DNA of 64,000 nucleotides, taken from assembly GCA_034003745.1 (NCBI GenBank), contig JAVEYA010000001.1, positions 43-64,042 of the forward strand, read 5' to 3'. The notes under the pieces were generated by a model, which did no database searches, was not told the origin of the DNA, and was given only the letters and a program-made list of their open reading frames with translations. How positions within the stretch are numbered: the first letter of the stretch is position 1; each line of letters opens with the position of its first letter. Positions 4,944-62,664 of the stretch are shown piece by piece. Position numbers and translations under genes: made by a program. Source of the stretch: Clostridia bacterium. Lineage in GTDB: Bacteria > Bacillota > Peptococcia > DRI-13 > PHAD01.

Positions 4944-7622
4944 TTACCTCTGACCAACCGAACCCGAACCGCCTTTTGATTGGTCTTTGTTGCTAATAGC
5001 CGCCTGGGCGGCGGCCAGCCGAGCGAGGGGGACCCTAAAGGGCGAGCAGCTGACATAGTCCAAGCCCAGGATGTGGCAGAATTCAACAGAATTGGGTTCA
5101 CCGCCATGTTCGCCGCAGATGCCTACTTCCAACTCAGGCTTCGTCGAGCGGCCGTTCTTGACGGCCAGCTCCATCATTTTGCCGACCCCTTTTCTGTCTA
5201 AAACGATAAAGGGATTATTCTTCAGGATTTTCTTATCGAGATAATCGTTCATGAATTTGCCCTCCGCATCGTCGCGGGAGAAGCCCAACGTGGTCTGGGT
5301 CAGGTCGTTCGTGCCGAAGGAGAAGAAATCAGCGGCCTCGGCGATTTCGTCGGCCGTTACGCAGGCCCGCGGCAGCTCAATCATGGTGCCCACCGTATAA
5401 GGAATCTTCACGCCGGTTTCCGCCATCACCTGAGCCGCCACATCTTCGACGTCTTTTCTAAGGAGGGTCAGCTCATTCTTATCGATGACCAGCGGAATTT
5501 CCACTTCCGGAATGACCTTATAGCCTTCTTTAATCAAGCGGGCGGAAGCCTGGAAGATGGCTCTTGATTGCATCCGGTAAATCTCCGGCCAGGAGACGCC
5601 CAGGCGACAGCCGCGATGTCCCAGCATGGGGTTGAATTCATGCAGAGAGCGGGCTTTGGTCAGGATTTTCTGCAGTTCCGCGATTTTGTGGTCTTCTTTT
5701 TGGGCTCTCAGTTCAGCAATCTCTACTGCCAGTTCCTCCACATTGGGCAAGAACTCATGCAGCGGCGGGTCCAGCAGGCGAATGGTCACAGGCAGGCTTT
5801 CCATCGCCTTTAATATGCCATAAAAGTCCTCTTCTTGTATCGGCAGCAGTTTGGCTAAAGCCTTTTCCCTGTCGGTGACGTTATCCGACATAATCATTTC
5901 CTGAACGATGGGCACGCGGTCCGGCGCCATAAACATATGCTCCGTGCGGCACAGGCCAATGCCTTCCGCCCCGAATTCCCGGGCCTTTTCCGCATCCGGC
6001 GGATTGTCCGCGTTGGCTCTGACTTTAAGCTTTTTGGTTTCATTGGCCCAATCTAATAATTGCTGGAATTCCCGGCTTAATTCCGGGTCAATCATCTTGA
6101 CTGTACCCAGCATCACTTTGCCGGTGCTGCCGTCCAAAGAGATGATATCGCCTTCTTTGATAACCAAATCACCCACCCTGACCGTTCCGGATTCGTAATC
6201 AATCTTCAGAGCTTCACAGCCGCAGACACAGCATTTGCCCATACCGCGAGCTACTACAGCGGCGTGGGAAGTCATCCCGCCGCGGCTGGTGAGTATTCCC
6301 TGGGCGGCAACGATACCGTGGATATCATCCGGTGTAGTTTCGGTGCGGACCAGGAGGACTTTCTTACCCTCCTTGGCCAAATCCTCCGCCTTGTCGGCAT
6401 TGAGCACCACCTGGCCGGAAGCCGCGCCGGGAGAGGCCGGCAGGCCCGTAGCCACTACCTTGAGTTCACAAGAAGGGTCAATGCGGCGGTGCAGGAGCTG
6501 GTCCAAAGAAGCGGGTTCCACCCTCAAGAGGGCTTCTTCTTTGGTGATGATACCCTCCGCTACCATGTCTACCGCTATTTTGACCGCAGCGCTGGCTGTG
6601 CGTTTGCCGTTTCTGGTCTGCAGCATATACAGCCGGCCATGCTCGATGGTAAACTCGATATCCTGCACATCCCGGTAATGATTCTCCAGGACATGGCAGA
6701 TTTCATTAAACTGTTTAAAAACTTCCGGATTCTCCAGGGCCAGTTTCTCTATGGTCTGCGGCGTACGAATCCCTGCGACAACGTCTTCGCCCTGGGCATT
6801 CATCAAAAATTCACCGTAGAGCTTCTTCTCGCCCGTGGAGGGGTTGCGCGTAAAGGCCACGCCCGTGCCGGAATCATCGCCTTTGTTGCCGAAAACCATG
6901 GTTTGGACGTTAACTGCCGTCCCCAGATCAGCAGAAATATTATGGATTTTTCGGTAGACATCGGCACGCGGATTGAACCAGGAAGAAAAGACCGCCCGGA
7001 TGGCCATCAAGAGCTGTTCTTTCGGGTCCTGCGGGAAAGATTGCTCGGTGACGCGCTTGATAATCGTCTTATAGTCTTCAATCAGTTTTTCCAGAGCTTC
7101 CGGCGTGAGGTCCTTGTCCAGCTCCACATGGATTTCATGTTTTTTTCTTTCCAGCGCCGTTTCAAACTGGTAATGCTCCACGCCCATGACCACATCGCCG
7201 AACATCTGAATAAAGCGGCGGTAGCTGTCCAAGGCGAAACGCTTGTTATTCGTTTTTTTGATCAGGCCCTGGACTGTTTCATCATTGAGGCCAAGATTCA
7301 GAATTGTATCCATCATACCGGGCATAGACACCGGCGCGCCGGAGCGGACGGACACCAGGAGCGGGTCATTGACATCGCCGAATTTCTTGCCGGCCTGCTG
7401 CTCCACTTCTCCCATCTTGCCCCATAATTCTTCTTCCATTCCGGCGGGAAACTCTTTGCCTGCGGCAAAATATTGAATGCAGGTCTCAGTGGTAATGGTC
7501 AGGCCGGGAGGGACGGGAAGTCCGATATTGGTCATCTCCGCCAGATTTGCGCCCTTGCCGCCCAGCAGATTCTTCTTATCCGCACTACCTTCTTTAAACA
7601 AAAAAACATATTTGTTACTCAT
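4944..7622 (-). CDS. ppdK: Pyruvate, phosphate dikinase
   Basis: 892 aa. The N-terminus is MSNKYVFLFKEGSADKKNLLGGKGANLAEMTNIGLPVPPGLTITTE. It has the phosphohistidine region GGMTSHAAVVARG and a PEP-utilising C-terminal TIM barrel. Confidence 0.97.
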   Translation of the reverse strand: MSNKYVFLFKEGSADKKNLLGGKGANLAEMTNIGLPVPPGLTITTETCIQYFAAGKEFPAGMEEELWGKMGEVEQQAGKKFGDVNDPLLVSVRSGAPVSMPGMMDTILNLGLNDETVQGLIKKTNNKRFALDSYRRFIQMFGDVVMGVEHYQFETALERKKHEIHVELDKDLTPEALEKLIEDYKTIIKRVTEQSFPQDPKEQLLMAIRAVFSSWFNPRADVYRKIHNISADLGTAVNVQTMVFGNKGDDSGTGVAFTRNPSTGEKKLYGEFLMNAQGEDVVAGIRTPQTIEKLALENPEVFKQFNEICHVLENHYRDVQDIEFTIEHGRLYMLQTRNGKRTASAAVKIAVDMVAEGIITKEEALLRVEPASLDQLLHRRIDPSCELKVVATGLPASPGAASGQVVLNADKAEDLAKEGKKVLLVRTETTPDDIHGIVAAQGILTSRGGMTSHAAVVARGMGKCCVCGCEALKIDYESGTVRVGDLVIKEGDIISLDGSTGKVMLGTVKMIDPELSREFQQLLDWANETKKLKVRANADNPPDAEKAREFGAEGIGLCRTEHMFMAPDRVPIVQEMIMSDNVTDREKALAKLLPIQEEDFYGILKAMESLPVTIRLLDPPLHEFLPNVEELAVEIAELRAQKEDHKIAELQKILTKARSLHEFNPMLGHRGCRLGVSWPEIYRMQSRAIFQASARLIKEGYKVIPEVEIPLVIDKNELTLLRKDVEDVAAQVMAETGVKIPYTVGTMIELPRACVTADEIAEAADFFSFGTNDLTQTTLGFSRDDAEGKFMNDYLDKKILKNNPFIVLDRKGVGKMMELAVKNGRSTKPELEVGICGEHGGEPNSVEFCHILGLDYVSCSPFRVPLARLAAAQAAISNKDQSKGGSGSVGQR

Positions 7623-8395
7623 TTTTCTCCCCCCCTATAATAGATGTGTAAAATCTTATTGGCTGTCTCTTCAATGGCTTTATTGGACACATCAATCACC
7701 GGACAACCGATTCTATGCATAATTTCTTCCGCATATTCGATTTCCTGTAAAATTCTCGCCAAATCGGCATAATCGGCGTTAGGCGCCAATCCCAGCGCTT
7801 TCAAACGCTCCTGCCGGATAGGGGTTAATATCTCCGGTTTGACTGTCAAACCGATAATTTTACGCGGGTTCACCTTGAACAGTTCTTCGGGGGGCTTGAC
7901 CTCGGGCACCAACGGAATATTGGCCGCCTTAATTCTTTTATGGGCCAGATACATGCACAGCGGCGTTTTCGAGGCACGGGAGACGCCCACCAGGACTACG
8001 TCGGCAAAATTAATGCCGCGGGGGTCTTTTCCGTCATCATATTTAACGGCAAATTCAATGGCTTCAACGCGGCTGAAGTATTCCTCATCCAGCTTGTATA
8101 ACAAGCCCGGCTCTAATCTCGGCTCTTTATGCGAAACCTTGGCGATAGCCTCCAGCATGGGCCCCAATATATCTACCACAACGATATTATGCTTTTGGGC
8201 AACAGCCAGCAAATGCTCCCTGAGCTGAGGCAATACCAGGGTAAAAGCCACCAGAGCTTTATCCTCTACAGCTTCGGCCAGCACCTGGTCAATATATTCT
8301 TTGTTATTAACATAAGGTATTCTCTTGATATCCACATGGCCGGAATTAAACTGGCTGGCTGCTGCCTTGACCACGAATTCCGCAGTCTCACCCAA
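7619..8395 (-). CDS. Pyruvate phosphate dikinase regulatory protein (PDRP, YqfL/DUF299 family); true start probably upstream of 8395
   Basis: The sequence ..SDSLGETAEFVVKAAASQFN.. and the P-loop VGVSRASKTP match B. subtilis YqfL. The stop overlaps the ppdK ATG (ATGA at 7619-7622). The conserved N-terminal residues PIIYVLSDS lie upstream of the first ATG/GTG/TTG (see finding). Confidence 0.9.
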   Translation of the reverse strand: MGETAEFVVKAAASQFNSGHVDIKRIPYVNNKEYIDQVLAEAVEDKALVAFTLVLPQLREHLLAVAQKHNIVVVDILGPMLEAIAKVSHKEPRLEPGLLYKLDEEYFSRVEAIEFAVKYDDGKDPRGINFADVVLVGVSRASKTPLCMYLAHKRIKAANIPLVPEVKPPEELFKVNPRKIIGLTVKPEILTPIRQERLKALGLAPNADYADLARILQEIEYAEEIMHRIGCPVIDVSNKAIEETANKILHIYYRGGEK

Positions 8396-49078: not shown

Positions 49079-49957
49079 TTATGCGTTAATTCGGAAAGCC
49101 AGCGCCGCCCATTCTTCCTCTCCGCGCTCTTCCAGAAGGGAAAAACCGGCTTTTGCGGCAGCAGCGATAATTTCATCTTTGCGCTCGGCGATAATGCCGG
49201 AAGCAATGAAGACGCCTTGGGGCGCCAGACAAATTTTAACCTGAGGCAGGAGCGCCAGGATGACGTCGGCAATAATATTGGCTACGATCACATCAGCCTG
49301 CTCCGTAACCCCTTGGAGCAAATCATGCTGTTCGGCTTTCACCGTCTCCGCCAGCGCGTTCAACGTGATATTCTCCCGGGCCACCCGGACAGCCACCGGG
49401 TCATCATCCACAGCCCAGACCACACGCGCGCCCAGACGGGCGGCGCACATAGCCAGGATCCCCGTGCCCGTGCCCACATCAAAAACCTGCGCACCGGGCT
49501 GAATATATTTCTCCAAAAGCCGGATACACAGGCTGGTTGAAGCGTGGCTGCCCGTGCCAAAAGCCATGCCGGGGTCAATATCCAGAACGATTTCGCCTTC
49601 CTGGGGCTGATACGGCTCCCAAGTCGGACGGACGACAATTCTTTCGCCGATCTTTAACGGCTTAAAATATTTCTTCCAAGCGTTGGCCCAATCCTCTTCA
49701 TTCATCACCAGACGGCCGATTTCATACGGTTTCTTGTTCAGGCGCCGGGCTATCTGGGCCAGCTCTTCCTGCAGTTCATCGAGCTTGCCGGATAAATGCT
49801 CATCCACCGGCAAATAGCCCTTTACCAGGGCATAGGGCAGCTTATGCGTGTCCTGGTCCTCGACCACAACGCCGCCCGCGCCAAGCTGATGAAATACCGA
49901 GGCAATAGCTTCCACCGCCTCATTTCCTGTCTTGATGGTGATTTCCTGCCACTCCAT
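49079..49957 (-). CDS. prmA: Ribosomal protein L11 methyltransferase
   Basis: MEWQEITIKT..., SAM motif VFDVGTGTGILA. Confidence 0.93.
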   Translation of the reverse strand: MEWQEITIKTGNEAVEAIASVFHQLGAGGVVVEDQDTHKLPYALVKGYLPVDEHLSGKLDELQEELAQIARRLNKKPYEIGRLVMNEEDWANAWKKYFKPLKIGERIVVRPTWEPYQPQEGEIVLDIDPGMAFGTGSHASTSLCIRLLEKYIQPGAQVFDVGTGTGILAMCAARLGARVVWAVDDDPVAVRVARENITLNALAETVKAEQHDLLQGVTEQADVIVANIIADVILALLPQVKICLAPQGVFIASGIIAERKDEIIAAAAKAGFSLLEERGEEEWAALAFRINA

Positions 49958-49968
49958 CCAACTTCTCC

Positions 49969-51108
49969 TTACCCTTTGATACTATCCCAGATTTTTTCAA
50001 AAAAACCTTTGTCCCGGTCCTTTTCGAAAGGCTTATAATTCCCTTTATTGCTAAGGCTGCTGAATTGCTCCAAAAGCTTTTTCTGCTCCTCGTTCAATTT
50101 GGTCGGCGTGGCGATAATTACCCGGATATGCTGGTCCCCCCGGCCGCCGCCGCGCAAATGCGGAATGCCCTGTCCCTTCAGGCGGAAGGTGGTATGGGTC
50201 TGGGTACCTTCGGGAACCTTCAGGTCGGCTTTCCCTTCCAGCGTCGGCACCTTGATGGTATCCCCCAGAGCCGCCTGCACAAAGGTGATCGGCATCTCCA
50301 TAAAAATATCGTCATCCTGGCGTTTAAAAATCTTATGGGGCTTTACTTGAATATATACGTAGAGGTCGCCGCGGGGTCCGCCTTTGGAGCCCGGTTCCCC
50401 TTCCCCGCCGAGACGGATGCGCGAACCGGAATCCACCCCTGCCGGAATCTTGATATGCAGGCTGCGGTTCTTCCTGACTTTACCCCGGCCGCGGCATTCC
50501 GGACAAGGATTTTTGATGACGGTCCCTTCACCGCCGCAGTCAGGACAGGTCCGGACCGTCTGGAAATGACCCAGCGGCGTCCGCTGGGTCGATCTGACCT
50601 GCCCGGCGCCATTGCATTTGGGGCATTTCTCCGGCTGTGTACCGGGTTTGGCTCCGCTGCCCTGGCAGGTGGGACAATTCTCCAGACTGGGAACGTCAAT
50701 GTCCTTCTCTACCCCAAAAGCGGCCTCTTCGAAACTAAGGTCGATATCCAGCCGCAAATCCGAGCCCTTTTGCGGGCCGCGGGGCTGCCGCGCGCCTGTT
50801 CCGCCGAAGAAAGCCTCAAAGATATCCTCAAACCCGCCGAAGCCCGCCGCTCCGCCAAAGCCCCCGCCGAAACCGGCGTTAGGGTCCGTGCCGGCATGGC
50901 CGAACTGGTCGTAGCGGCCCCGTTTTTCCGAGTCGCTTAGAACTTCGTAGGCTTCATTTACTTCCTTGAACTTCTCCTCCGCTGACTTATCTCCCGGGTT
51001 CACGTCCGGGTGATACTGACGGGCCAATTTGCGGAATGCTTTTTTTATCTCTGTCTCTGAGGCATTTTTTTCAACGCCCAATACCTCGTAATAGTCCCTT
51101 TTAGCCAC
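49969..51108 (-). CDS. dnaJ: Chaperone DnaJ
   Basis: J-domain with HPD (YHPDVNPGD), a G/F region and four CxxCxGxG zinc motifs. Confidence 0.97.
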
Positions 51109-51162
51109 GTATCACACCTCTAATAATAGCATTAGTAAGGGCTGGTTCCCTCGCCATATACT

Positions 51163-51240
51163 GTCATTCTGAGACGATATCGCTGTCGAAGAATCTTTTT
51201 GCAGTAACTCATTAAGATTCTTCGTTGCACTCAGAATGAC
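51163..51240. repeat. 78-bp nested inverted repeat in the dnaK-dnaJ intergenic spacer
   Basis: The outer arms GTCATTCTGAG (51163-51173) / CTCAGAATGAC (51230-51240) and the inner arms CGAAGAATCTT (51187-51197) / AAGATTCTTCG (51214-51224) are each perfect 11-mers. Confidence 0.9.
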
Positions 51241-51250
51241 AATAGGGAGC

Positions 51251-53077
51251 CTATTTCTCGTCATTAACCTCGTAATCGGCATCCACCACATTATCATCCT
51301 GCTGCGGGGCGTCCTGCTGCTGCCCGGCCTCCGCTCCCGCGGCGCCGGCCTGCTGATACATTTTAGAGGTCAGCGCATGCAGTTCCGTCTGCAGGGTCTC
51401 GGTCTTCTGCCGGATGTTTTCCGAATCGCCCGCCGATACGGCAGCCTGCAAATCTTCCTTCGCCCGGTTGATTTTATCGGTTTCTTCAGCAGAGGCTTTG
51501 TCCCCGGCTTCTTTTAAAATCTTTTCCGTCTGGTAAATAAGGTTGTCGGCCTGGTTTTTGACCTCCGCCTCTTCTTTTTTCTGCTTATCGTCCGAGGCAT
51601 GCTGTTCCGCTTCCTTGACCATGCGCTCGATTTCATCCTTCGCCAGATTGGTGGAGGCGGTAATCGTAATGTTCTGCTGCTTGCCCGTGCCCAAATCCTT
51701 GGCCGAGACTTCGAAAATACCGTTGGCGTCGATATCGAACTTCACTTCGATTTGCGGAATGCCGCGCGGCGCGGGGGGAATCCCGGTCAGCTGGAATTTG
51801 CCCAAGGTCTTGTTATAGGCGGCCATTTCCCGTTCTCCCTGCAGCACGTGAATCTCCACCGTGGTCTGGTTATCCCCGGCGGTGGAGAAAATCTGGCTCT
51901 TGGAAGTGGGAATGGTCGTATTTCTTTCAATCAGCCTGGTAAATACGCCGCCTAAAGTTTCAATCCCCAAAGAAAGCGGCGTCACATCCAACAAGAGGAC
52001 GTCTTTTACTTCGCCGGCCAGCACGCCGGCCTGAATGGCAGCCCCAACGGCAACGCACTCGTCCGGGTTGATGCCCTTGAAGGGTTCTTTGCCGATAATT
52101 TTCTTGATGGCTTCCTGTACCGCCGGGGTGCGGGTCGAACCGCCCACCAGGAGAACCTTATTGATTTTGGACGGGTCCAATCCGGCGTCTTTTAAGGCTT
52201 GGCGCGTAGGTCCCACCGTCGCCTCCACCAGGTCGGCCGTCAATTCGTCGAATTTGGCGCGGGTCAGGTTGAGGTCCAAATGCAGCGGGCCTTCCGCCGT
52301 CGCCGTAATAAAAGGCAGATTGATATTGGATGTAACCACCGAAGACAGCTCGTGCTTAGCCTTCTCCGCCGCTTCCCGCAGTCTTTGCAGGGCCATTTTA
52401 TCATTCTTTAGATCCACACCCGAGGACTTCTTAAATTCCTCATTCATCCAGTTGACGACCCGCTCGTCGAAATCGTCCCCGCCTAAATTATTATTACCGC
52501 TGGTGGCCTTGACTTCGAAGACCCCGTCGCCTAACTCCAGAATGGAGACGTCGAAAGTGCCGCCGCCTAAGTCAAAAACCAGAATCGTCTGGTCCTCTTC
52601 CTTATCAATCCCATAAGCCAGCGCGGCTGCCGTGGGCTCGTTGATAATGCGCAGGACCTCCAGGCCGGCGATTTTTCCGGCGTCTTTGGTAGCCTGGCGC
52701 TGGGAATCGTTAAAATAAGCCGGGACAGTGATAACGGCCTGGGTCACTTTTTCCCCCAGGTAGCTTTCCGCATCCGCTTTCAGCTTTTGCAGAATCATTG
52801 CGGAAATCTCCTGCGGCGTATAGTGCTTATCGTCAATTTTCACCTTATAATCGCTGCCCATTTTTCTTTTGATGGATTGCACGGTGCGCTCCGAGTTGGT
52901 CACGGCCTGACGTTTGGCTACCTGACCCACCAGCCTTTCGCCGGTCTTGGAAAAGGCCACAACCGAGGGCGTTGTCCTGTTGCCTTCCGAATTGGCGATG
53001 ACCACCGGCTCACCGCCTTCAATCACTGCCACGCATGAATTTGTCGTACCCAAATCTATTCCAATTACTTTCGCCAT
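51251..53077 (-). CDS. dnaK: Chaperone DnaK (Hsp70)
   Basis: [18 protein letters not shown]..., 608 aa. Confidence 0.98.
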
Positions 53078-53129
53078 TTAACGTTCCCTCCTAAATCAGT
53101 AATTTTCCTTACTTATGTTCATTTCTTGT

Positions 53130-53708
53130 TTACTTCTTGGCGACTTTGACCATAGCCGCCCGGAGCAATTTATCCCTGAAAAGATAGCCTTTGCGCAGCA
53201 CGCCCGTAATCTCGTTATCCGCTTCCCCGTATTGGGCCGGCTCACTCATTACCGCCTCGTGCAGCGTGGGGTCAAAACTCTTGCCCAGGTCTTCTACACT
53301 GCTTAAGCCCTCGTTTTGCAGCACATCCAGCAATTGCCGCTGTATCATGACCACGCCGGAGAAAATCCCCTTGACTTCTTCCCCTTGATTCTGCACATTC
53401 TCCAAAGCCCGCTCCAGATTATCGAGCACCGGCAGAAGCTTCTCCATTAAATTCATGGCCCCATAGCGGGTCCAGTCTTCTTTTTCCCGCTGGATCCGTT
53501 TTCTGTAATTATCAAAATCAGCCATCAGCCGGACAACCCTATCGTTGGCTTCCTTCAATTGCATGTCCTTGGAATCTCCCTGCGGTTTTTCCGGAGGCGC
53601 GTCGTCCAATCCGGCTTCATCCAATATTTTATCAACGATTTCGTCCATTTCTTCCGGCGTAGTTTCGCGGATATCCTCCCGTTCTACATGATGTTTCTTT
53701 GCATTCAT
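53130..53708 (-). CDS. grpE: Nucleotide exchange factor GrpE
   Basis: RLMADFDNYRKRIQRE ... GYLFRDKLLRAAMVKV. Confidence 0.95.
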   Translation of the reverse strand: MNAKKHHVEREDIRETTPEEMDEIVDKILDEAGLDDAPPEKPQGDSKDMQLKEANDRVVRLMADFDNYRKRIQREKEDWTRYGAMNLMEKLLPVLDNLERALENVQNQGEEVKGIFSGVVMIQRQLLDVLQNEGLSSVEDLGKSFDPTLHEAVMSEPAQYGEADNEITGVLRKGYLFRDKLLRAAMVKVAKK

Positions 53709-53720
53709 TTTATCACCACC

Positions 53721-55286
53721 CTAATATAAATCTGTGTGTTCTTGTAATGCTTTGGTTTCTTTCTTCTTGATAATCGTATCAATGCGCAGGATCGCTTCGG
53801 CGACCTCGCCGGCTGCCTTCAGCGCATATTTTTTGACCAAGGCCGGGTCATAGACGCCCAGCTCCGTCAAATCCCGGATTTCTCCACTGTCGGAATCGAT
53901 CCCCAGGGAGTCCTTACCGCTTTCTACCTGCGCGGCGGAGACGTCACCCAGCTTTTCCAGCGGATTGAAGCCTGCATTTAAAACTATTTGCGAAAAGGGC
54001 GCTTTTAATGCGGCAATGACACAATCCAAACCATAGGCCGCCATCCCTTTGGCTTCCCTTCTTAAAGACTCTATCTCGCGGGCTACGGCCAATTCCACCG
54101 TGCCGCCGCCGGGGATAATTCCTCCCCGCACTGCCGCCTGTACCGCCGAGGCCGCATCTTTGGCAATTCTTTCCCGTTCCCCGGCGACTTCCTCGGTAGA
54201 GGCCCCCACCAGGATGGTCGCCTGGGCTTTCGCACTTCCGCCGATAATGCGGACATGCTCCAGCTTTTCATCGAAGACAGCCTCTTGGGCTTGACCAAAA
54301 TACTTTTCCAGCTCCGCCGGCGCCTTCTTTAAGGCGGACTTTTTAAGAAGCTTGGCGCCGCAGTGCTCCGCCGCCCGGCGCAGTTCCTTGTTCATCACCC
54401 GGGACAAGACCATAACCCCGGCGTCGGTCAGAATCTCTTCAGCCCGGTCGTGAACGCCTCGGTCCGCCAGGACAAGGTTCATCCCTAATTGCGCGATTTT
54501 TTGGATGTTCTCCTTAAATTCTTCCTGCAGCAGGATGTACCGGTTGAAACCGGATTCAGTAGTCAGCGCTTCTTCTTCAATTTCTTCCGGCTCCAGCGCG
54601 TCGTCTATAATCAAGAGTTTAACCGGGGTAAGCTGTTTGGGCATTTCCGCATTCAGAGGCTCCTTGCCGATAATTACGCCGGATATCACCTCATTAACTG
54701 CGCCAACTTCAGCCTGCACCAGCTCAGAGAGCTTAAACGTTACTTCTTTTAATTTCTCCGGGCCAATCAACCGGGCTGCTTCAATCACCAATTGGGCAAT
54801 ATCCGTATGGCCCCGCCCTGCTACCAACGCCACATCCCATAAGGCCGGATCATTCAGATCGGAGATTTCCCGCTTCTTTTCATCCAGGACTTGCAGGGCC
54901 TTAGCAACGCCGGTACGCATTCCTTCAATTACTTTTATTACAGGGACGCCTTTTAAAACCTGCGCTACCCCTTCACTGATCAGATGCCCCGCCATAATTG
55001 TCGCCGTGGTCGTACCGTCGCCGATTTCCGCCTGCTGGGCTTTAGCGATATTAATCAGCATACGCGCGGCCGGATGATTCACATCCATCAGCTCCAGAAT
55101 CGTCACGCCGTCATTGGTGATGACCACGTTCCCGAACTGGTCGACCAGCATGGTATCCAGACCTTTGGGGCCCAAAGTGCCTTCCACGGCCTGGTTGACC
55201 GCCCGGATCGCATTGGCGTTGGTCATTAAAGCCGCCAACTTTTCATCCACTTCGGAATTTGGCGCGGCCTGTTGTTTAACATTCAC
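53721..55286 (-). CDS. Thermosome-like (group II-type, TCP-1/cpn60 family) chaperonin encoded inside the hrcA-dnaK operon
   Basis: [65 protein letters not shown] is the thermosome/CCT signature; GroEL would read GPKGRNVVL. 521 aa. The GTG start overlaps the hrcA stop (GTGA at 55283-55286). Confidence 0.9.
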
Positions 55287-56308
55287 AGCTTATTCATTCC
55301 TTCCTTTAAGGTAGCTGTTAAAAATTCCACAATGCCGACGGCTTTGGAATATTCCATTCGGGTGGGACCCAGGAGGCCCAGCGTCCCAATCAATTTGCCG
55401 TTCAGATGATACGTTGCCGTAATCAGGCTGCAATCTTTCATGACCTCATACCTGTTTTCGGAACCTATTTTGATAATTACGCCATTTTCTTTATCCGGCG
55501 ACAGCACCTCTTTTAAGGCATTTTTCTCCTCCAGAAGTTCCAAGAGGGACCTGACCTTTTCAATTTGCTTGAATTCCGGCTGGTTCAGGATGTTCAGCGT
55601 GCCCCCCAGAAAAACTTTCTGCGCCTGTTCCAGCGCCAGCGTATCACTGATTTGTTCCATCAGATAAGACAGGAATTTCATGCGGTCGGCCAGTTTGGCG
55701 AATATCGAATTCATCAGGCCGGTCTGCCACTGTTCCAGCGAGAGACCGCGCAAATTTTCATTCAACAAAGAGGTAAACGCGGCATACTCTTCCTCCCGGA
55801 TGGATTCCGGCACCTCGATGACCCGGTGTTCCACATGGCCGTTCTCCAGGACAATCATCAGCACCGCCCGGCCGTTTTCAATCGGCAGGAGCTGAATATG
55901 CTTGAGCCGGTGTTTGGCCAGCACAGGCGATAAGATCAAGGCTGTATAGTTTGTCAACTCCGAGAGGAGTTTCCCGGTTATCTGAATCAGAGCATCCGTT
56001 TCCCGGATACGGTTTAAGAGTTCTCCGCAAATCAAATCCCTGGCCTCGTCGGCAACAGGTTCCTTCTGCATCAGGCAGTCCACATAATAGCGGTAGCCCA
56101 ACTGGGAAGGTACCCGGCCCGCTGAAGTATGGGGCTGCTCAATCAGGCCCATCTCTTCTAAGTCGGCCATTTCATTACGAACCGTCGCCGGGCTGACGCC
56201 CAGGTTGTATTTACGGGCAATCGTGCGTGAGCCCACAGGATCTGCGGTAGCAATGTAATCCAGGATGATTGCGTGTAAAATCATCCTCTTGCGTTCATCC
56301 ATCTGCAT
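55283..56308 (-). CDS. hrcA: Heat-inducible transcription repressor HrcA
   Basis: [66 protein letters not shown]. Confidence 0.96.
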
Positions 56309-56327
56309 TCTGGGGCCACCTCCCTTG

Positions 56328-56354
56328 TTAGCACTCTCCTTCTTCGAGTGCTAA
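56328..56354 (-). promoter_or_regulatory. CIRCE operator (HrcA binding site)
   Basis: TTAGCACTC (56328-56336), 9 nt, GAGTGCTAA (56346-56354). This is a perfect match to the CIRCE consensus, with a TATAAT hexamer abutting it on the minus strand (56354-56359). Confidence 0.95.
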
Positions 56355-56499
56355 TTATATCTCTTTAAAAATATCATTAACCCTTTTTTTTGTCAACGAT
56401 ATAAGGCTATTTTCATTTGGGGACAGGTCTCTCGTCCCATTTTTATAGGCTCTCTTGTTAAAGGGGAGGCGCCAGGCGAAGCTGATGAAAGGATTCTTA

Positions 56500-57657
56500 T
56501 CAAGGCAAAAATTCCATGAAGACTACATTGGCCAAAAACAGTCCTTTTTTAGTGAGCTTTACCTGCGCGGGCGTTTTCTCAAGCAAGCCGTCCGCATAAA
56601 GCTTTTGCAGCGTTTCTCCATAAACGCTTTCCAGAGACTGCCCAAATTTTTGCCGGAATATTTCTTTATTGACACCCTCTAAAAGCCGCAAGCCCAAAAA
56701 CATCTGCTCCGCCATCGCCAATCTTTGGTCAATTGCTTCCTCCCCGGCGGTGGGTCTTCTTCCCTGGGAAACTTTATCCGCATATACTGCCAAATCCGCC
56801 TCGTTAGTGTAACGAACGCCTTGCAGATAGCCGCTTGCACCCGCGCCCAATCCGATGTATTCGCGGTTTTGCCAGTACAGCGTATTATGCCGGCTCATCC
56901 TGCCGGGCTGCGCAAAATTGCTGATTTCATAATGATGATAGCCCTGCCGGGTCAGATATTCTATCGTCTCTTCAACCATCCGGCGGGCTGTTTCTTCCGC
57001 AGCCTCTTGCAATTCTCCCTTTTGCCGCCGCATAAAAAAGGGCGTACCCTCTTCGATATGCAGCTGATACAGGGATAGATGCTCCGGTGAAAGCGCCACC
57101 GCAGCCTGCAGATTCTTTTTCCAATCCTTTATAGTCTGTCCAGGCAGACCATACATCAAATCCAGGCTGATATTCGTAAAACCGGCTTGCCGGGCCAAGC
57201 GGCAAGCTAAAGACACATCCTGGGGCGAATGAATCCGTCCCAGTGCCTGCAACTCGCCCACAGAAAAGCTCTGTATCCCTATGGATAAGCGGTTAACGCC
57301 GCCTTCCTTCAGCCTTTCCAGCTTCTCCCGGTCTACCGTGCCGGGATTGGCTTCCGCCGTAATTTCCGCGTCAGGGAGAAATACAAACATCTGCTGCAAT
57401 GACTGCAACAGATGAAATAGCTGCCCGCCCGCCAAGCAGGTGGGCGTTCCGCCGCCCAGATACAGGCTTTCGTGGGACAGAGGGACAGGTCCCTTGTCCC
57501 ACTGATATAGCGCGGCTTCTTCCAGCAACAGCCGGACATAGCGCTCCTGCTCCGCTAAGCGCGCCGTCTCATCTGCCGGCACCACGTAAGAAGTAAAATC
57601 ACAGTAGGGGCATTTGCGAACGCAGAAAGGAATATGCACATAGATCCCCAGGCTCAT
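56500..57657 (-). CDS. hemW: Radical-SAM heme chaperone HemW (HemN-like)
   Basis: [16 protein letters not shown] radical-SAM motif; 385 aa. It sits at the conserved position between lepA and hrcA. Confidence 0.92.
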
Positions 57658-59456
57658 TTATCTTCCAGACTAAGCACAGCGACAAAGGCTTCCTGCGGGA
57701 TCTCCACGCTGCCCACCATCTTCATGCGCTTCTTGCCTTCCTTCTGCTTCTCCAGGAGCTTGCGTTTACGCGTGATGTCGCCGCCGTAGCATTTATCGAT
57801 AACGTTCTTGCGCAGGGCTTTGATGGATTCCCGGGCAATGATTTTATTGCCGATGGCCGCCTGTATCGGCACCTCAAACATCTGCCGGGGAATCAGGCTG
57901 CGCAGTTTTTCCACCATGGCCCGCCCGCGATAATAGGATTTCTCCCGGTGCGCAATGAAGGATAAAGCGTCCACCACCTCGTTGTTCACCAGGATGTCCA
58001 GCTTGACCAGGCTCGACTCCTTATAGCCGCTCAATTCATAATCCAGCGAGGCATACCCGCGTGTGCGCGATTTCAGCGCGTCAAAAAAATCATAAATTAT
58101 CTCAGCCAGCGGTAGCTCATATTTCAGCATCACCCGGTTGGCCGAAAGGTAATCCATATTTTTAAAGACGCCGCGCTTCTCCTGGGCCAGTTCCATGATG
58201 CCGCCGACATATTCGCTCGGCGTCATCACCGTAGCCAGGATATAGGGTTCCTCAATCGTCTCGATTTCCTGTACGGTCGGAAGCTTCGTGGGATTATCTA
58301 TCTCCAGGGTTTCGCCATTGGTCTTATTCACCCGGTACACCACGGAGGGCGCGGTAATCAGCAAATCCAGCGAATACTCCCGCTCCAGACGTTCCCGGAT
58401 AATCTCCATATGCAAAAGCCCCAAAAAGCCACAGCGATAACCAAAGCCCAAAGCCACCGAAGTTTCCGCTTCATAGACTAAGGAGGCGTCGTTCAGCTTC
58501 AGTTTTTCCAATGCGTCGCGCAGATTCTCGTAGTCGCTGGTCTCGATGGGATACAGCCCGCAATAGACCATGGGTTTAACCGTGCGGTAGCCCGGCAGCG
58601 GGGTATCCACGATATTATCCGCCGAGGTGATAGTATCACCCACCCGGGTATCTTTCACATTCTTGGCGCTGGCCGCCAGAAAACCGACCATACCCGCTGA
58701 GAGTTCTTCCACGCCGCGCATCGCGGGTGTAAATACGCCGACCTCTGTTACGTCGAAGACTTTCCCGGTAGCCATCATTTTAATCTTCATATCTTTGGCG
58801 ACTTTGCCGTCCACCACGCGCAGATAGGAAATGGCGCCTTTATAGGAATCGAAATGAGAATCAAAAATCAGCGCCTTCAGCGGGGCTTCCGGATCCCCCT
58901 GGGGCGGCGGAATCTTCGCGATTACAGCTTCCAGAATCTCTTCAATGCCGACGCCTTCTTTGGCGGAGGCCAAAATAGCCTCGCTGCAGTCCAGTCCGAT
59001 AACGTCCTCCAGTTCCTGCCTGACCCGCTCCGGTTCGGCGCTGGGTAAATCGATCTTATTGATGACGGGAATCAATTCCAGATCATGTTCCAGGGCCAGA
59101 TAAATATTGGCCAGCGTCTGGGCTTCAATCCCCTGAGAAGCGTCCACCACCAGGATGGCCCCCTCGCAGGCGGCCAGACTCCGCGAGACCTCATAGGTAA
59201 AGTCGACATGGCCGGGGGTATCAATCAGATTCAAAAGATATTCCTGCCCGTTTCTGGCCTGGTAGTTCATGCGGACAGCCTTCAGCTTGATGGTAATGCC
59301 GCGTTCCCGTTCCAGATCCATATGGTCTAAGACCTGCGACGTCATTTCCCGTGCGGACAAAGCCCCGGTATATTCCAGCAGGCGGTCGGCCAGGGTGGAC
59401 TTCCCGTGGTCGATATGGGCGATGATGCAAAAATTACGGATGTTACTCTGACTCAT
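57654..59456 (-). CDS. lepA: Translation elongation factor 4 (LepA)
   Basis: [27 protein letters not shown]... The ATG at 59456 follows GGAGGAG. Confidence 0.97.
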
Positions 59457-59520
59457 ATACTCCTCCAATGCAGACTGTGGATAAGCACTCCTTGGAGTAC
59501 TTCTGAAAAGTCCGGTATAT

Positions 59521-61083
59521 TCAATGCCGTGGTCTTAACTTTCTTAAAAACAGTTTCTTAGCCAGTTCGCTTTCTTCCATTTTCAACAGCAGGGCCAGCC
59601 CGATAAAGAGAACGACGCCGACCGCGATGGCGACCGCTACCTGGATCACCTGGCCGGTTTTCGTACCCACGTCCAGGAAGGCTTCCAGCCAGGCCGCCGT
59701 TTGATACGCGGCCAGCCCCATGATCACGGAAACACCTGTAGTCTTCAGAAACGAAGCCAGCATTTTTCTGCCGTCAATGGAGCCGATCCGGATCCTTAAC
59801 ACTACCAATAGCCCAATCATGTTGACAATCCCGGCCAAAGAATAGGCCAGCGCCAGCCCGCCGTGCGCCAGTGAGCCAATCAGCCAGAAATTCAGCGCGA
59901 TATTAATTAAGATGGTGAGAATCCCCACCGTCACCGGGGTCCTGGTATCCTGCAGGGCATAAAAGACCCTGTTTAAAAGCTGAATAGCCGAATAGGCAAA
60001 AAGACCGATACAGTAGAATAATAAAGCGTAGGCGGTAGCTTCCGTATCTTCCGGCGTAAAAAGCCCCTGCTGGAACAAGAGCCGGATTACCGGCGTCCGT
60101 AAGGCCATCAGGCCGATCGCCGAGGGGATGGTGATAAAAAGAATCGTCCGTACGCCCAAAGACATGGTTTGCTTAAATTGCTGTTTCTCCTCCCGGGCCG
60201 CGTGCCCGGTCAGTGTTGGGAAGACCGCCACGGCAATAGCGATGGCAAAGACGCCGATAGGCAGCTGCATAATCCGCTGGGCTGCCCTCAGCGCTGAAAT
60301 CATTCCCTCCGGCAGCGTGGAACCGAGATTCTGATTGACGAAAAGATTGAAATGCGTCACCGACAGGCCGATTAAAACGGGCAAAATCAGGGCGCCAATC
60401 TTTCTGACGCCGGGATGGTTTAAATCGATGACTGGCCGATAGCGCAGGCCTAAACGTATTAAAGCCGGCAGCTGCACCGCGAAATTTAAGGCGGCGCCCG
60501 CTACCACGCCGACGGCGAAACCAACAATACCCAGATAAGGCGACAGCAGGAGGCCGATGGCGATAATCCCGAAGTTATATAAAACCGCGCCCACCGCCGG
60601 CGCCATAAACTGCTGATAGGAGTTCAGTATTCCCATGGAAATGCCGTTTAGCGCCATAAAGAACGTCTGCACAAACATGATCCTGGTCATGCTTACCGTA
60701 AGCGCCATATTGACCTCGTCAAAACCGGGAACCAGGAGACGAATCAGGGCAGGGGCAAAAATCATCCCGATGGCAATGCCGATCAGCATTAAAATAATTA
60801 TAATATTAAAAATCGTGCTGGCAACAATCCAACCTTCTTTTTCTTTCTTCGTGGCAATCAAAGAGGAAAATACTGGGATAAAGGCCGAGGAGAGCGCCCC
60901 CCCTACCAGCAGGTAATACAGGAAATCCGGGATGGAAAAGGCTGCGTTATAGGCGTCCGTAAAACTGTTTTGCCCGAAACGGGCATAAATAACCATATCC
61001 CGCACATAACCGAGGATGCGGGACAGGACCATCGCTATCATTAAAATACCCGCCGCTTGGGCTACCTTTTTCCCTGTGGACAT
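59521..61083 (-). CDS. murJ: Lipid II flippase MurJ (MviN)
   Basis: [54 protein letters not shown]; 520 aa, about 14 TM. Confidence 0.9.
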
Positions 61084-61587: not shown

Positions 61588-62664
61588 TTACTGTCCTTCC
61601 CTTAGAATGCCGTTCATGATTCCGGCCAGCGCAGCGGCGGAATTCAGCGCATCTTCTTCTTTATTCAGGTCGCTGCCGAATTCCAGTAAAATCGAACGGG
61701 GGTGCAAGTGCTGGTTATAACGGCGTTCTTCCCGGATGCGGATGGTCTTGATTAATCCCGGATAAAGTTCGTTGGCTTTGGCTTCTACTTTCTGGGCGAA
61801 GGTCAGGTTCTGTCTCCAATTCTTATGTTCATTTCCGATGACAATCATCACTTTAGCATATTCCTTATCGCCGATTTTCACCAGCGTGTCCGAGCGTGAG
61901 GATAATCCTGCGTCCCGGTGGATATCCAGCACCAATTGGATGGAAGGATATTTTTTCAGGAGCTGCTGCACCGTATTTAAAGAATTGTTGTAGGCCTTGG
62001 CAAAATCGGGATAATCATGGATCACGTCGCAATAATAGGTCTTCACGCCATATTTGTTCTCCAACTGCTGCGAAAAATATCGTGATACTCTGGCCACGCC
62101 GGCATTCTTCCCTTCAAACTTGGAGGCCCCATCCGTCGGTTTATACGATTCGGCGTTATGCGTGGTATAAATCAGGACCGCAGGGTCCCCGCTCAAATTC
62201 GAAGGATAGGACGGCTCTTCCGGAATCAGCCATTCTCTCAGCCCTTCTTCCTGGCCCGGCAAATAATAATCCTCCTCTCCTACTTCAGGAGGTTCCACTA
62301 CAGGCGCAGCAGCCAGGAAGGAAGCCAGTGCAGCTTGATGGTGGAGCAGATTTAACTCCGTACCGATGATGCTCATCGGGTTTTGAGCGTCAAAACCGGT
62401 AATACTGTAAATAAACTGAGCGGCCCAATATTCCGGCAACCCCGTCAGTCCCCCGTCAGGTCCGTTTGGGCCCAAAGGCAGGGCCTCCTTCACAATGGCA
62501 TCGCAACTGTTATCCGGATTAACCATAGCATATACCGTTTTGATGTTGGCAGACGAACCGGTCAGCGACGAGAACCCTATGAACAGCACAATCAGCAGAA
62601 TGGGCAGGACAAACTTAATTTGACCTATATGAATCATTTTTTGTCTTCTTCGCAAAAACAACAT
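61588..62664 (-). CDS. spoIIP: Stage II sporulation protein P
   Basis: VLIYTTHNAESYKPTDG ... VIHDYPDFAKAYNNSLNTVQQLLKKYPSIQLVLDIHRDA. The start may instead be the internal MIHIGQ at 62637. Confidence 0.9.
   Translation of the reverse strand: MLFLRRRQKMIHIGQIKFVLPILLIVLFIGFSSLTGSSANIKTVYAMVNPDNSCDAIVKEALPLGPNGPDGGLTGLPEYWAAQFIYSITGFDAQNPMSIIGTELNLLHHQAALASFLAAAPVVEPPEVGEEDYYLPGQEEGLREWLIPEEPSYPSNLSGDPAVLIYTTHNAESYKPTDGASKFEGKNAGVARVSRYFSQQLENKYGVKTYYCDVIHDYPDFAKAYNNSLNTVQQLLKKYPSIQLVLDIHRDAGLSSRSDTLVKIGDKEYAKVMIVIGNEHKNWRQNLTFAQKVEAKANELYPGLIKTIRIREERRYNQHLHPRSILLEFGSDLNKEEDALNSAAALAGIMNGILREGQ

Follow-up and report, generated by a model that had tools for sequence, protein, structure and literature searches.

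The chaperonin of Carboxydothermus hydrogenoformans, Ch-CPN, is the prototype of the Group III chaperonins, a bacterial clade of thermosome-like Cpn60 proteins, and is available in open (PDB 5X9U) and closed (PDB 5X9V) structures (An et al. 2017, PMC5635000). It is a hexadecamer that has ATPase activity, refolds MDH and closes on binding of AMPPNP, and it likewise closes on binding of ATP, with little or no cooperativity (PMC5635000). The reconstructed ancestor of Group III chaperonins, ACIII (PDB 9RWQ), assembles into double rings of eight subunits and hydrolyses ATP (2025, PMC12696368); Ch-CPN and ACIII are the only cases in which two stacked rings of eight that are not staggered are known (PMC5635000, PMC12696368). 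The molecule name in PDB entry 9RWQ is ‘ACII’; PMC12696368 assigns the entry to ACIII. For Carboxydothermus and numerous further Firmicutes, the literature describes the position of Group III genes in the hrcA-dnaK operon and their control by HrcA (PMC5635000, PMC5220055, PMC5904260), HrcA control being stated in PMC5904260, which cites Techtmann & Robb 2010. Bacteria with a Group III chaperonin also possess GroEL/ES (PMC5220055), and an ancient transfer from an archaeon to a Firmicute may lie at the origin of the Group III family (PMC12696368).

The window, by which we mean the whole 64-kb stretch of DNA that was analysed, contains a gene that we read, at a probability of roughly 93%, as an ordinary, functional Group III chaperonin under HrcA/CIRCE control together with the DnaK machine; its assembly, ATP cycle and heat induction we infer from the family. 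A Group III chaperonin in the hrcA-dnaK operon is an already known arrangement, and the gene is real but ordinary. The original prediction had judged it unusual but not new, which is how it stands: the same operon position and HrcA control are in the literature, an identical protein from a Clostridia MAG is already in NCBI, and the exact protein also occurs on one 5-kb Logan contig. With this gene, a chaperonin class that was described in 2010, crystallised in 2017 and ancestrally reconstructed in 2025 gains one further orthologue.

Layout and predicted control of the operon

Read along the minus strand, the locus runs from lepA-hemW through a promoter-like site, CIRCE, hrcA, the Cpn60/TCP-1 gene, grpE, dnaK and dnaJ to prmA-rsmE-mtaB, with the following features.

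56368..56396, minus strand: sigma-70-type promoter-like site (consensus match only, 10/12; best site in the region)
56328..56354, no strand assigned: CIRCE operator, the predicted HrcA site, perfect TTAGCACTC-N9-GAGTGCTAA (pattern search)
55283..56308, minus strand: hrcA, heat-inducible transcriptional repressor, 341 aa (TIGR00331, 346 bits, cutoff 197; Pfam HrcA, 230 bits)
53721..55286, minus strand: Group III (bacterial thermosome-like) chaperonin, 521 aa (ORF, profiles, PDB matches, tree and model)
53130..53708, minus strand: grpE, 192 aa (ORF and clear GrpE family match)
51251..53077, minus strand: dnaK, 608 aa (Hsp70, 847 bits)
51159..51244, minus strand: long stable stem-loop in the 142-nt dnaK-dnaJ spacer (RNA folding)
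49969..51108, minus strand: dnaJ, 379 aa (ORF and clear DnaJ family match)

The 521-aa chaperonin that had been claimed between hrcA and grpE is confirmed as an open reading frame at 53721-55286 on the minus strand, and the claimed overlap of its GTG start with the hrcA stop proves to be the 4-nt GTGA in which the start (55286-55284) meets the TGA of hrcA (junction AAG CTG TGA / GTG AAT GTT). A Shine-Dalgarno-like run, AAGGAAGGAA, lies 12 nt upstream of the GTG, and since the relatives align from residue 1, the position of this start is homologous to their ATG starts. On the other side, grpE begins 12 nt past the chaperonin stop, with a Shine-Dalgarno sequence, GGTGGTGA, inside the gap. The 4-nt overlap and the 12-nt gap leave no room for a terminator around the chaperonin gene, and a terminator scan found no credible minus-strand terminator inside hrcA-chaperonin-grpE. 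For a machine of 16 subunits, translational coupling to hrcA, the gene of a low-abundance repressor, is a strange mode of production. The chaperonin gene has the same GC3 and codon usage as the neighbouring genes and is not a recent import. A phmmer comparison with all window ORFs of at least 100 aa found no second chaperonin (groEL) in the 64 kb besides the gene itself, and no groES adjoins it among the window ORFs.

The perfect CIRCE said to head the operon is indeed present at 56328-56354 and remains unique across the 64 kb when up to 3 mismatches are tolerated (no match in 100 shuffles). Between its end and the hrcA ATG there are 19 nt, which contain a Shine-Dalgarno sequence, GGGAGGTG. 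Upstream, the promoter-like site combines TTGACA (56396-56391), a 17-nt spacer and TATTTT (56373-56368) preceded by TG, and ends 13 nt before CIRCE; shuffles give sites of this kind about as often as the region does (6 found, 5.2 expected). The window has the two marks of an HrcA/CIRCE regulon, namely a CIRCE lying between promoter, here the promoter-like site, and first gene, and an encoded HrcA.

We propose that a sigma-A-type promoter before hrcA would give rise to a single hrcA-chaperonin-grpE-dnaK(-dnaJ) message, and that HrcA, bound to the single CIRCE operator, would repress the operon at normal temperature. By analogy with the family, for which heat induction has been reported (Techtmann & Robb 2010, as cited in PMC5904260), heat or protein-folding stress would lift this repression, and the chaperonin would therefore be made together with DnaK, DnaJ and GrpE. 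A direct client hand-off from DnaK to the chaperonin is speculative, in the literature as well as here.

Further downstream, the dnaK-dnaJ spacer folds with a minimum free energy of -47.1 kcal/mol (z = -5.0; 0 of 200 shuffles as stable), and the corresponding spacers of many relatives are similarly structured. Partial termination or stabilisation of the mRNA are possible functions of the stem-loop; it lies outside any curated RNA family, since an Rfam scan across 49500-57000 returned no match (E<=1).

Family assignment and functional residues

Pfam PF00118 (Cpn60_TCP1) scores 363 bits over residues 31-509 of the protein, and the translation carries the motifs GPKG, ITNDG and GDGTTT. The original prediction had read these as a group II signature rather than a GroEL one: the motifs are present and the protein is not a GroEL, but they are common to Groups II and III and so not specific to Group II. 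The best PDB sequence matches are the Group III ancestor ACIII (9RWQ, 637 bits) followed by Ch-CPN (5X9U/5X9V, 485 bits), while the best real thermosome reaches 226 bits. Identity is 61% to the resurrected ancestor 9RWQ and 48% to Ch-CPN (507 residues aligned, one gap of 1 residue); in our own alignment it is 48-86% to Group III proteins, only 25-32% to the thermosomes sampled and 27-28% to GroELs. A neighbour-joining distance tree (300 bootstraps; 6 Group II and 3 Group I sequences, no CCT) recovers Groups III, II and I at 100% bootstrap each, and places the window protein inside Group III and outside GroEL, as sister to the homologue P0002 and Thermanaerosceptrum. This placement bears out the original statement that the gene encodes a thermosome-like chaperonin of the Carboxydothermus kind, proposed as a third group, whose operon is on record (PMC5635000, PMC5220055, PMC5904260). 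Judged by its sequence, the protein does not belong to Group II and is a typical Group III chaperonin.

A true archaeal Group II thermosome subunit, recently transferred into the dnaK operon, would likewise have TCP-1-type motifs and a built-in lid, which are common to both groups, and thermosome profiles do score best among the NCBIfam models (293 bits); these profiles nevertheless miss their cutoffs (TIGR02339, 293 against 671 bits; NF041083, 290 against 400; NF041082, 287 against 450), and all CCT profiles are far under theirs. Such an origin also sits badly with the low identity to thermosomes, the placement in Group III at 100% bootstrap, codon usage and GC3 that fit the neighbouring genes, the absent nucleotide-sensing loop and shortened lid described below, and an insertion site that is the same in 80 of 80 related loci. 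Although the whole family may stem from an ancient transfer of this kind (PMC12696368), a recent one into this operon is very improbable, and codon usage, tree and synteny effectively refute it.

Database names point in another direction, as JGI and UniRef call several close homologues ‘chaperonin GroEL (HSP60 family)’ or ‘60 kDa chaperonin’, and partial GroEL profile matches of 149-173 bits could be taken to indicate a divergent Group I paralogue. The matches are fragmentary, however: TIGR02348 reaches 149 bits (cutoff 582), split over two separate stretches. No GroEL is found among the best 60 PDB matches, the tree parts the protein from GroEL at 100% support, no groES adjoins the gene, and the protein has a helical lid that GroEL is without. 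We consider a GroEL paralogue scarcely credible, refuted as it is by profile scores, PDB matches, tree and structural comparison. Group III is captured by no NCBIfam model, since the protein stays under the cutoffs of all thermosome, CCT and GroEL profiles, and databases consequently name its members ‘GroEL’, ‘thermosome subunit’ or ‘TCP-1/cpn60 family’. The practical value of the window gene is for annotation.

Two stretches of the Group III gene were matched to Ch-CPN, the lid of which is delimited following the residue definition of PMC5635000.

54813..54815, minus strand: codon of R158 (Ch-CPN R155), the gamma-phosphate-contacting Arg (alignment; invariant in 45/45)
54486..54608, minus strand: built-in lid (helical protrusion), residues 227-267 (Ch-CPN 223-263; alignment to 5X9U)

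Conservation was counted in an alignment of 45 homologues, across which mean column identity is 74% and in which the window protein departs from columns conserved to at least 90% at only 10 positions. All Ch-CPN key residues are kept, with little or no variation at these positions among the 45 homologues. The catalytic residues N58 and D59 of the stem loop and D377 of the intermediate domain correspond to Ch-CPN N55, D56 and D373, and R158 sits in a short loop that replaces the nucleotide-sensing loop of Group II, which is 6 residues longer in thermosomes (the six-residue gap falls after A156 against 1A6D_A, 1Q3R_A, 9RWP and Halorussus ThsA with MAFFT, and after G159 with HMMER). The lid retains the hydrophobic tip residues L241, F247, Y250 and F257 (Ch-CPN L237, F243, Y246 and F253); compared with Group II it has lost 4 residues, and the segment is missing from GroEL in the same alignment. 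The inter-ring ball-and-socket contact is represented by L443 (ball) and K112, V114, M415 and Y418 (socket), which in Ch-CPN numbering are L439 and K109, V111, M411 and Y414; of the five, L443, V114 and M415 do not vary at all in the family alignment.

The AlphaFold2 model (pLDDT 87.2, pTM 0.83) fits chaperonin subunits over about 490-520 columns. A built-in lid, which the original prediction had proposed to look for in a predicted structure, appears there as helices 238-242 and 244-266, and the best Foldseek PDB matches are 5X9V_A and 5X9U_A (TM 0.88-0.89 query-normalised, 0.93 target-normalised), with Group II matches trailing at TM of about 0.8. By analogy with relatives of 48-61% identity, the chaperonin would assemble as a double ring of eight subunits each. 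N58/D59, R158 and D377 would bind ATP in the equatorial domain, and this binding would cause the protein's own short helical lid (residues ~227-267) to shut the folding chamber without help from GroES. L443 as the ball and K112/V114/M415/Y418 as the socket would form the joint at which the rings articulate. Given the built-in helical lid, GroES is probably not needed by the window protein.

One might see in the GTG start and the hrcA overlap the traces of a decaying or silent relic without current function, yet the reading frame is intact, free of frameshifts and full length (521 aa; about 518-543 aa among the best 120 matches), so that the pseudogene originally considered as a refutation is rejected. 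Further arguments against a relic are the retention of all catalytic and structural key residues, the column conservation reported above and a confident predicted structure. Lying in the middle of an essential operon, the gene should moreover be at least transcribed for expression of grpE-dnaK from the CIRCE promoter. A relic is, in our estimation, highly improbable.

Synteny among relatives and the link to HrcA

We compared the locus with 80 related genome loci across Peptococcia, Negativicutes, Desulfotomaculia and others. The hrcA gene lies directly upstream of the chaperonin gene in all 80, and the order hrcA-chaperonin-grpE is found in 70. CIRCE is present in all 77 related loci that could be judged, being perfect at the same position in 74 of the 80 and carrying one mismatch in 3 more. 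As the insertion site is the same in 80/80 loci, the gene is old and vertically inherited. In 7 loci, belonging to a related group of lineages, grpE-dnaK is absent from the operon while the hrcA-chaperonin pair is kept; dnaJ is still downstream of the chaperonin gene in these. An overlap between hrcA and the chaperonin gene occurs in only 4 of the 80 relatives.

Linkage of the chaperonin gene to hrcA is thus universal among the related loci, and its linkage to dnaK is not. The Group III family is biologically interesting, and this observation is all that the locus adds to it.

Besides general folding, the primary role of the chaperonin could be regulatory: it would keep HrcA active, and so complete the feedback loop of the heat-shock response, in the way known for GroEL in Bacillus subtilis, where a GroEL-HrcA titration model was reportedly established by Mogk et al. 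in 1997. Such a role would explain why the chaperonin gene is always joined to hrcA. From the adjacency in 80/80 loci, the survival of the pair in the 7 loci without grpE-dnaK and the 4-nt overlap in the window, a putative translational coupling, it follows that the chaperonin could be a dedicated folding sensor of HrcA. The adjacency is, however, equally explained if the chaperonin gene has to lie behind the single CIRCE promoter; in those 7 loci dnaJ likewise stays downstream, the overlap recurs in only the 4 relatives noted above, and the cited Group III literature yielded no experimental hint of such a role. We therefore hold a primarily regulatory role to be unlikely, and it is similarly doubtful that the conserved partner of Group III chaperonins is HrcA and not DnaK, in a role taken over from GroEL or shared with it. 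If true, the sensor reading would make the chaperonin a regulatory part of the heat-shock circuit, beyond a foldase, and it is compatible with the main explanation of the gene as an ordinary Group III foldase.

Comparison with known chaperonins and the Bacillus-type locus

Ch-CPN resembles the window protein in its length (521 aa) and in having a short lid, no nucleotide-sensing loop and a place in the hrcA-dnaK operon, and its catalytic, lid-tip and ball-and-socket residues are all identical in the window protein. The two differ in their hosts, an extreme thermophile for Ch-CPN and an uncultured Clostridia MAG here, and in the GTG start with its 4-nt hrcA overlap, which sets the window gene apart; the window protein is also nearer than Ch-CPN to most of the family (64-86% identity, own alignment). 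ACIII, its best PDB sequence match, is a reconstructed sequence, whereas the window protein is natural.

With thermosomes and CCT (Group II) the protein shares the three-domain fold, the built-in helical lid and the GPKG, ITNDG and GDGTTT motifs. The Group II nucleotide-sensing loop has a conserved Lys, whereas the window protein is without that loop and has Arg158 instead, and unlike the genes of thermosomes and CCT, the window gene resides in a bacterial host under predicted HrcA/CIRCE control. GroEL is likewise a PF00118 protein with an equatorial ATP site (GDGTTT), and in Firmicutes both GroEL and the Group III chaperonin belong to the HrcA/CIRCE regulon. Unlike GroEL/GroES, the window protein has a built-in lid and no adjoining groES, and octameric rather than heptameric rings are expected.

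Finally, the window shares gene order and orientation with the Bacillus-type lepA-hemN-hrcA-grpE-dnaK-dnaJ-prmA-yqeU-yqeV locus with CIRCE, reading spoIIP, murJ, lepA, hemW, CIRCE, hrcA and then grpE, dnaK, dnaJ, prmA, rsmE and mtaB, and as in that locus its CIRCE matches the consensus perfectly and is flanked by the promoter, here the promoter-like site, on one side and by the hrcA Shine-Dalgarno sequence on the other. What the Bacillus-type locus does not have is the one additional gene, the Group III chaperonin, between hrcA and grpE.

Placement of the protein among the chaperonins

Translation of the open reading frame (ORF) between hrcA and grpE yields a 521-residue protein that contains all chaperonin motifs quoted in the original prediction and matches the Pfam family Cpn60_TCP1 over residues 31–509 with 363 bits. 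The best NCBIfam matches are to thermosome models (293, 290 and 287 bits against cutoffs of 671, 400 and 450), and the GroEL models give only fragmentary matches (149 bits, with the cutoff at 582). As these scores lie far under the cutoffs, the protein is neither a Group II (thermosome/CCT) nor a Group I (GroEL) chaperonin by curated thresholds, and the fragmentary nature of the GroEL matches makes a divergent GroEL very unlikely, if not excluded. A search against all PDB sequences gave the following scores.

Scores of the window protein against PDB sequences
9RWQ, resurrected Group III ancestor: 637 bits
5X9U/5X9V, Carboxydothermus hydrogenoformans chaperonin (Ch-CPN), the Group III prototype: 485 bits, 48% identity, a single 1-residue gap across 507 residues
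9RWP, reconstructed Group II ancestor: 272 bits
Best real thermosome, Group II: at most 226 bits

The PDB molecule name of 9RWQ is ‘Ancestral Group II Chaperonin (ACII)’; according to the data-availability statement and Figure 5 legend of PMC12696368 it is ACIII, the Group III ancestor, and the sequence, which is without the nucleotide-sensing loop and 61% identical to the window protein, sides with the paper.

We built a neighbour-joining tree (300 bootstraps) from a MAFFT alignment of 24 sequences: the window protein, 12 named relatives, Ch-CPN, two ancestral reconstructions, five thermosomes (two from PDB, three haloarchaeal from plasmid records) and three GroELs, also from plasmid records. 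In this distance tree, with modest outgroup sampling, each of the three groups (I, II and III) has 100% bootstrap support and the window protein falls within Group III, apart from GroEL and Group II, its neighbours being an unnamed metagenomic protein (86% identity) and that of Thermanaerosceptrum fracticalcis (75%). Identities in the trimmed alignment are 64–86% to natural Group III proteins other than Ch-CPN, 61% to ACIII, 48% to Ch-CPN, 25–32% to thermosomes and 27–28% to GroEL. The suggestion of a Carboxydothermus-type third chaperonin group is thus borne out by the tree, the PDB ranking and the feature match described below.

The original description, ‘unusual but not new’, is also upheld: NCBI already lists an identical protein, encoded on a 72.7-kb contig and named ‘MAG: TCP-1/cpn60 chaperonin family protein [Clostridia bacterium]’, and more than 120 clusters are at least 63% identical to it. 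Because Group III chaperonins are missed by all NCBIfam models (the window protein lies below every thermosome, CCT and GroEL cutoff), public names of close homologues are inconsistent, with ‘chaperonin GroEL (HSP60 family)’, ‘60 kDa chaperonin’, ‘thermosome subunit’ and ‘TCP-1/cpn60 chaperonin family protein’ all in use.

Defining residues and predicted structure

Group III was defined as a separate clade with its place in the dnaK operon (An et al. 2017; PMC5635000). In its members the two-helix lid is built in but shortened, and its hydrophobic tip (L237, F243, Y246, F253) is strictly conserved. They are without the Group II nucleotide-sensing loop and so six residues shorter there, with a conserved Arg155 touching the gamma-phosphate, carry catalytic residues N55, D56 and D373, and join their rings by a ball-and-socket contact of L439 into K109, V111, M411 and Y414 (PMC5635000). 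The corresponding window residues (N58, D59, K112, V114, R158, L241, F247, Y250, F257, D377, M415, Y418 and L443) are all identical to those of Ch-CPN, and every one of these positions apart from K112, where K and R alternate, is either unvaried or at least 90% conserved across 45 family members.

In the multiple alignment the window protein lacks six residues after A156 that all Group II sequences have, at the nucleotide-sensing loop (HMMER puts this gap after G159), and shows a four-residue gap in the lid; the helical protrusion is missing from GroEL. The ‘group II signature’ originally reported stands as a set of motifs common with Group II, but Group II membership itself fails on both the curated thresholds and the missing loop. 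A confident AlphaFold2 model from the 45-sequence alignment (mean pLDDT 87.2, pTM 0.83) has disorder confined to residues 1–10 and 504–521 and places helices 238–242 and 244–266 at the expected lid position, in line with the built-in lid that had been proposed for checking. In a Foldseek search of PDB the top two matches are 5X9V_A (Group III, closed) and then 5X9U_A (open), with TM scores of 0.88–0.89 query-normalised and 0.93 target-normalised, followed by Group II chaperonins at about 0.8.

A dead gene is likewise excluded or very unlikely, as the protein differs from just ten of the columns conserved at 90% or more, and no functional position is among these. With its key residues all kept, it is evidently a functional and unremarkable family member and no pseudogene, as judged from its sequence.

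Operon anatomy and candidate control elements

Genes around the chaperonin ORF, all on the minus strand
61588–62664 (−), spoIIP
59521–61083 (−), murJ
57654–59468 (−), lepA
56500–57657 (−), hemW, followed by a 191-nt spacer before hrcA
55283–56308 (−), hrcA
53721–55286 (−), chaperonin ORF, 521 aa
53130–53708 (−), grpE
51251–53077 (−), dnaK
49969–51108 (−), dnaJ
then (−), in order, prmA, rsmE and an MtaB-like radical-SAM gene

These coordinates confirm the predicted position of the ORF within the dnaK operon. The spacer 5' of hrcA reads, in order, TTGACA-17 nt-(TG)TATTTT, 13 nt, TTAGCACTC-GAAGAAGGA-GAGTGCTAA, 19 nt containing GGGAGGTG, and ATG. The perfect CIRCE (HrcA operator) said to head the operon was recovered at 56328–56354 as the sole match in 64 kb with up to three mismatches permitted, and 100 shuffles gave no CIRCE match. 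A perfect TATAAT hexamer at 56354–56359 (−) adjoins it, the last T of the hexamer being the operator's first T. This hexamer, with no good −35 at 16–18 nt, is an alternative candidate −10 to the TTGACA-17-TATTTT found by the scan; if used, it would put HrcA right on the transcription start. Between hemW and the hrcA promoter (~56419–56439) we spotted by eye a short GC-rich hairpin, GGGAC-N11-GTCCC, which the terminator scan did not report; a T-run follows on the plus strand and, on the minus strand, an A-run flanks it. The hairpin may be a terminator that sets lepA-hemW apart from the CIRCE-controlled operon.

The chaperonin GTG start lies inside the CTG-TGA that ends hrcA (55283–55286, −), in agreement with the overlap originally noted, here a 4-nt GTGA. 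A AAGGAAGGAA run 12 nt 5' of the GTG may allow independent initiation of chaperonin translation, and grpE starts 12 nt past the chaperonin stop. These junctions are too tight for a terminator or promoter, and the terminator scan found no credible terminator in hrcA-chaperonin-grpE. On this gene anatomy, the chaperonin gene is predicted to be part of a single CIRCE-controlled transcription unit. It is odd for a 16-subunit machine to be coupled to a repressor gene, and the overlap is a minority arrangement: 4-nt overlaps occur in 4 of 80 related loci (the best 80 of at least 103), the usual junction being a 12–100-nt spacer with its own Shine-Dalgarno and ATG.

The 142-nt dnaK-dnaJ spacer holds a long near-perfect stem-loop (51159–51244, −; arms TGTCATTCTGAG...CTCAGAATGACA and GAAGAATCTT...AAGATTCTTC), folding at −47.1 kcal/mol (z = −5.0, with none as stable among shuffles) and without an Rfam match. 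In many relatives with long spacers this region is also strongly folded (−0.3 to −0.57 kcal/mol per nt); others have unstructured spacers of 21–50 nt. The stem-loop may act as a partial terminator, or as a stabiliser setting the DnaK:DnaJ ratio.

By analogy with the Ch-CPN prototype, 16 subunits would form two stacked octameric rings (PMC5635000, PMC12696368), and stem-loop residues N58/D59 and intermediate-domain residues R158/D377 would sense ATP bound in the equatorial pocket; upon ATP binding the short helical lids would meet side by side and shut the chamber, with no GroES and little cooperativity. No groESL lies within the 64-kb window. CIRCE-bound HrcA would repress the operon until stress lifts repression, whereupon the chaperonin would rise with GrpE, DnaK and DnaJ. 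Such control is established in Firmicutes and, in PMC5904260, reported for Group III genes; client delivery by DnaK to the lid is a suggestion of the family's discoverers (PMC5635000, PMC5220055).

Related loci and comparison with known systems

When one genome of each species was scanned, at least 103 relatives came up; the best 80, which were retrieved, are from Peptococcaceae/Peptococcia MAGs (up to 80% identity), Sporomusa, Pelosinus, Lucifera, Thermincola, Desulfotomaculum, Desulfofundulus, Desulfocucumis, Phosphitispora and others. Among these loci, hrcA is directly upstream on the same strand in all 80; 51 have the complete order lepA-hemW-hrcA-cpn-grpE-dnaK-dnaJ (cpn, the chaperonin gene), most others showing it cut by contig ends. 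CIRCE before hrcA is perfect in 74 and has one mismatch in three, the other three loci ending within 40 nt of hrcA. A recently transferred thermosome, which is excluded or very unlikely, would fit neither the sub-cutoff Group II scores and missing loop nor the gene's GC3 (0.61) and codon usage (r = 0.89 against neighbouring genes); since these match the surrounding genes, the chaperonin gene is an old resident and no recent import.

Seven of the 80 loci (L039, L054, L055, L059, L062, L074 and L075) carry an hrcA-cpn-dnaJ operon, with cpn mostly at ~6001–7530 of the locus, dnaJ starting 50–415 nt past it, and grpE and dnaK absent between them and within ~6 kb. L054 has a short DnaK-like fragment (7674–7916; DnaK residues 199–279, 36% identity) that may be a relic, and the seven chaperonins cluster in one region of the Group III tree. 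Because these loci are without grpE/dnaK, the hrcA-cpn linkage is steadier than that of cpn with dnaK, which the literature emphasises. That HrcA rather than DnaK is the chaperonin's invariant partner, with the chaperonin acting in an HrcA feedback loop, seems improbable; promoter sharing accounts for the adjacency equally well. Four typical Bacillota lepA-hemW-hrcA-cpn-grpE-dnaK loci (L010, L055, L065 and L068) bear MAG labels of Patescibacteria, Pseudomonadota, Armatimonadota and Candidatus Sumerlaeota. These probably reflect mis-binning or wrong taxonomy, not a wider Group III distribution; L010 falls in the chaperonin tree among Sporomusa loci, some of them MAGs from the same study.

The window locus is like the standard Bacillus/Clostridia lepA-hemN-hrcA-grpE-dnaK-dnaJ-prmA locus, plus one gene between hrcA and grpE, and that gene agrees with the published, already known Group III chaperonin in every testable respect.
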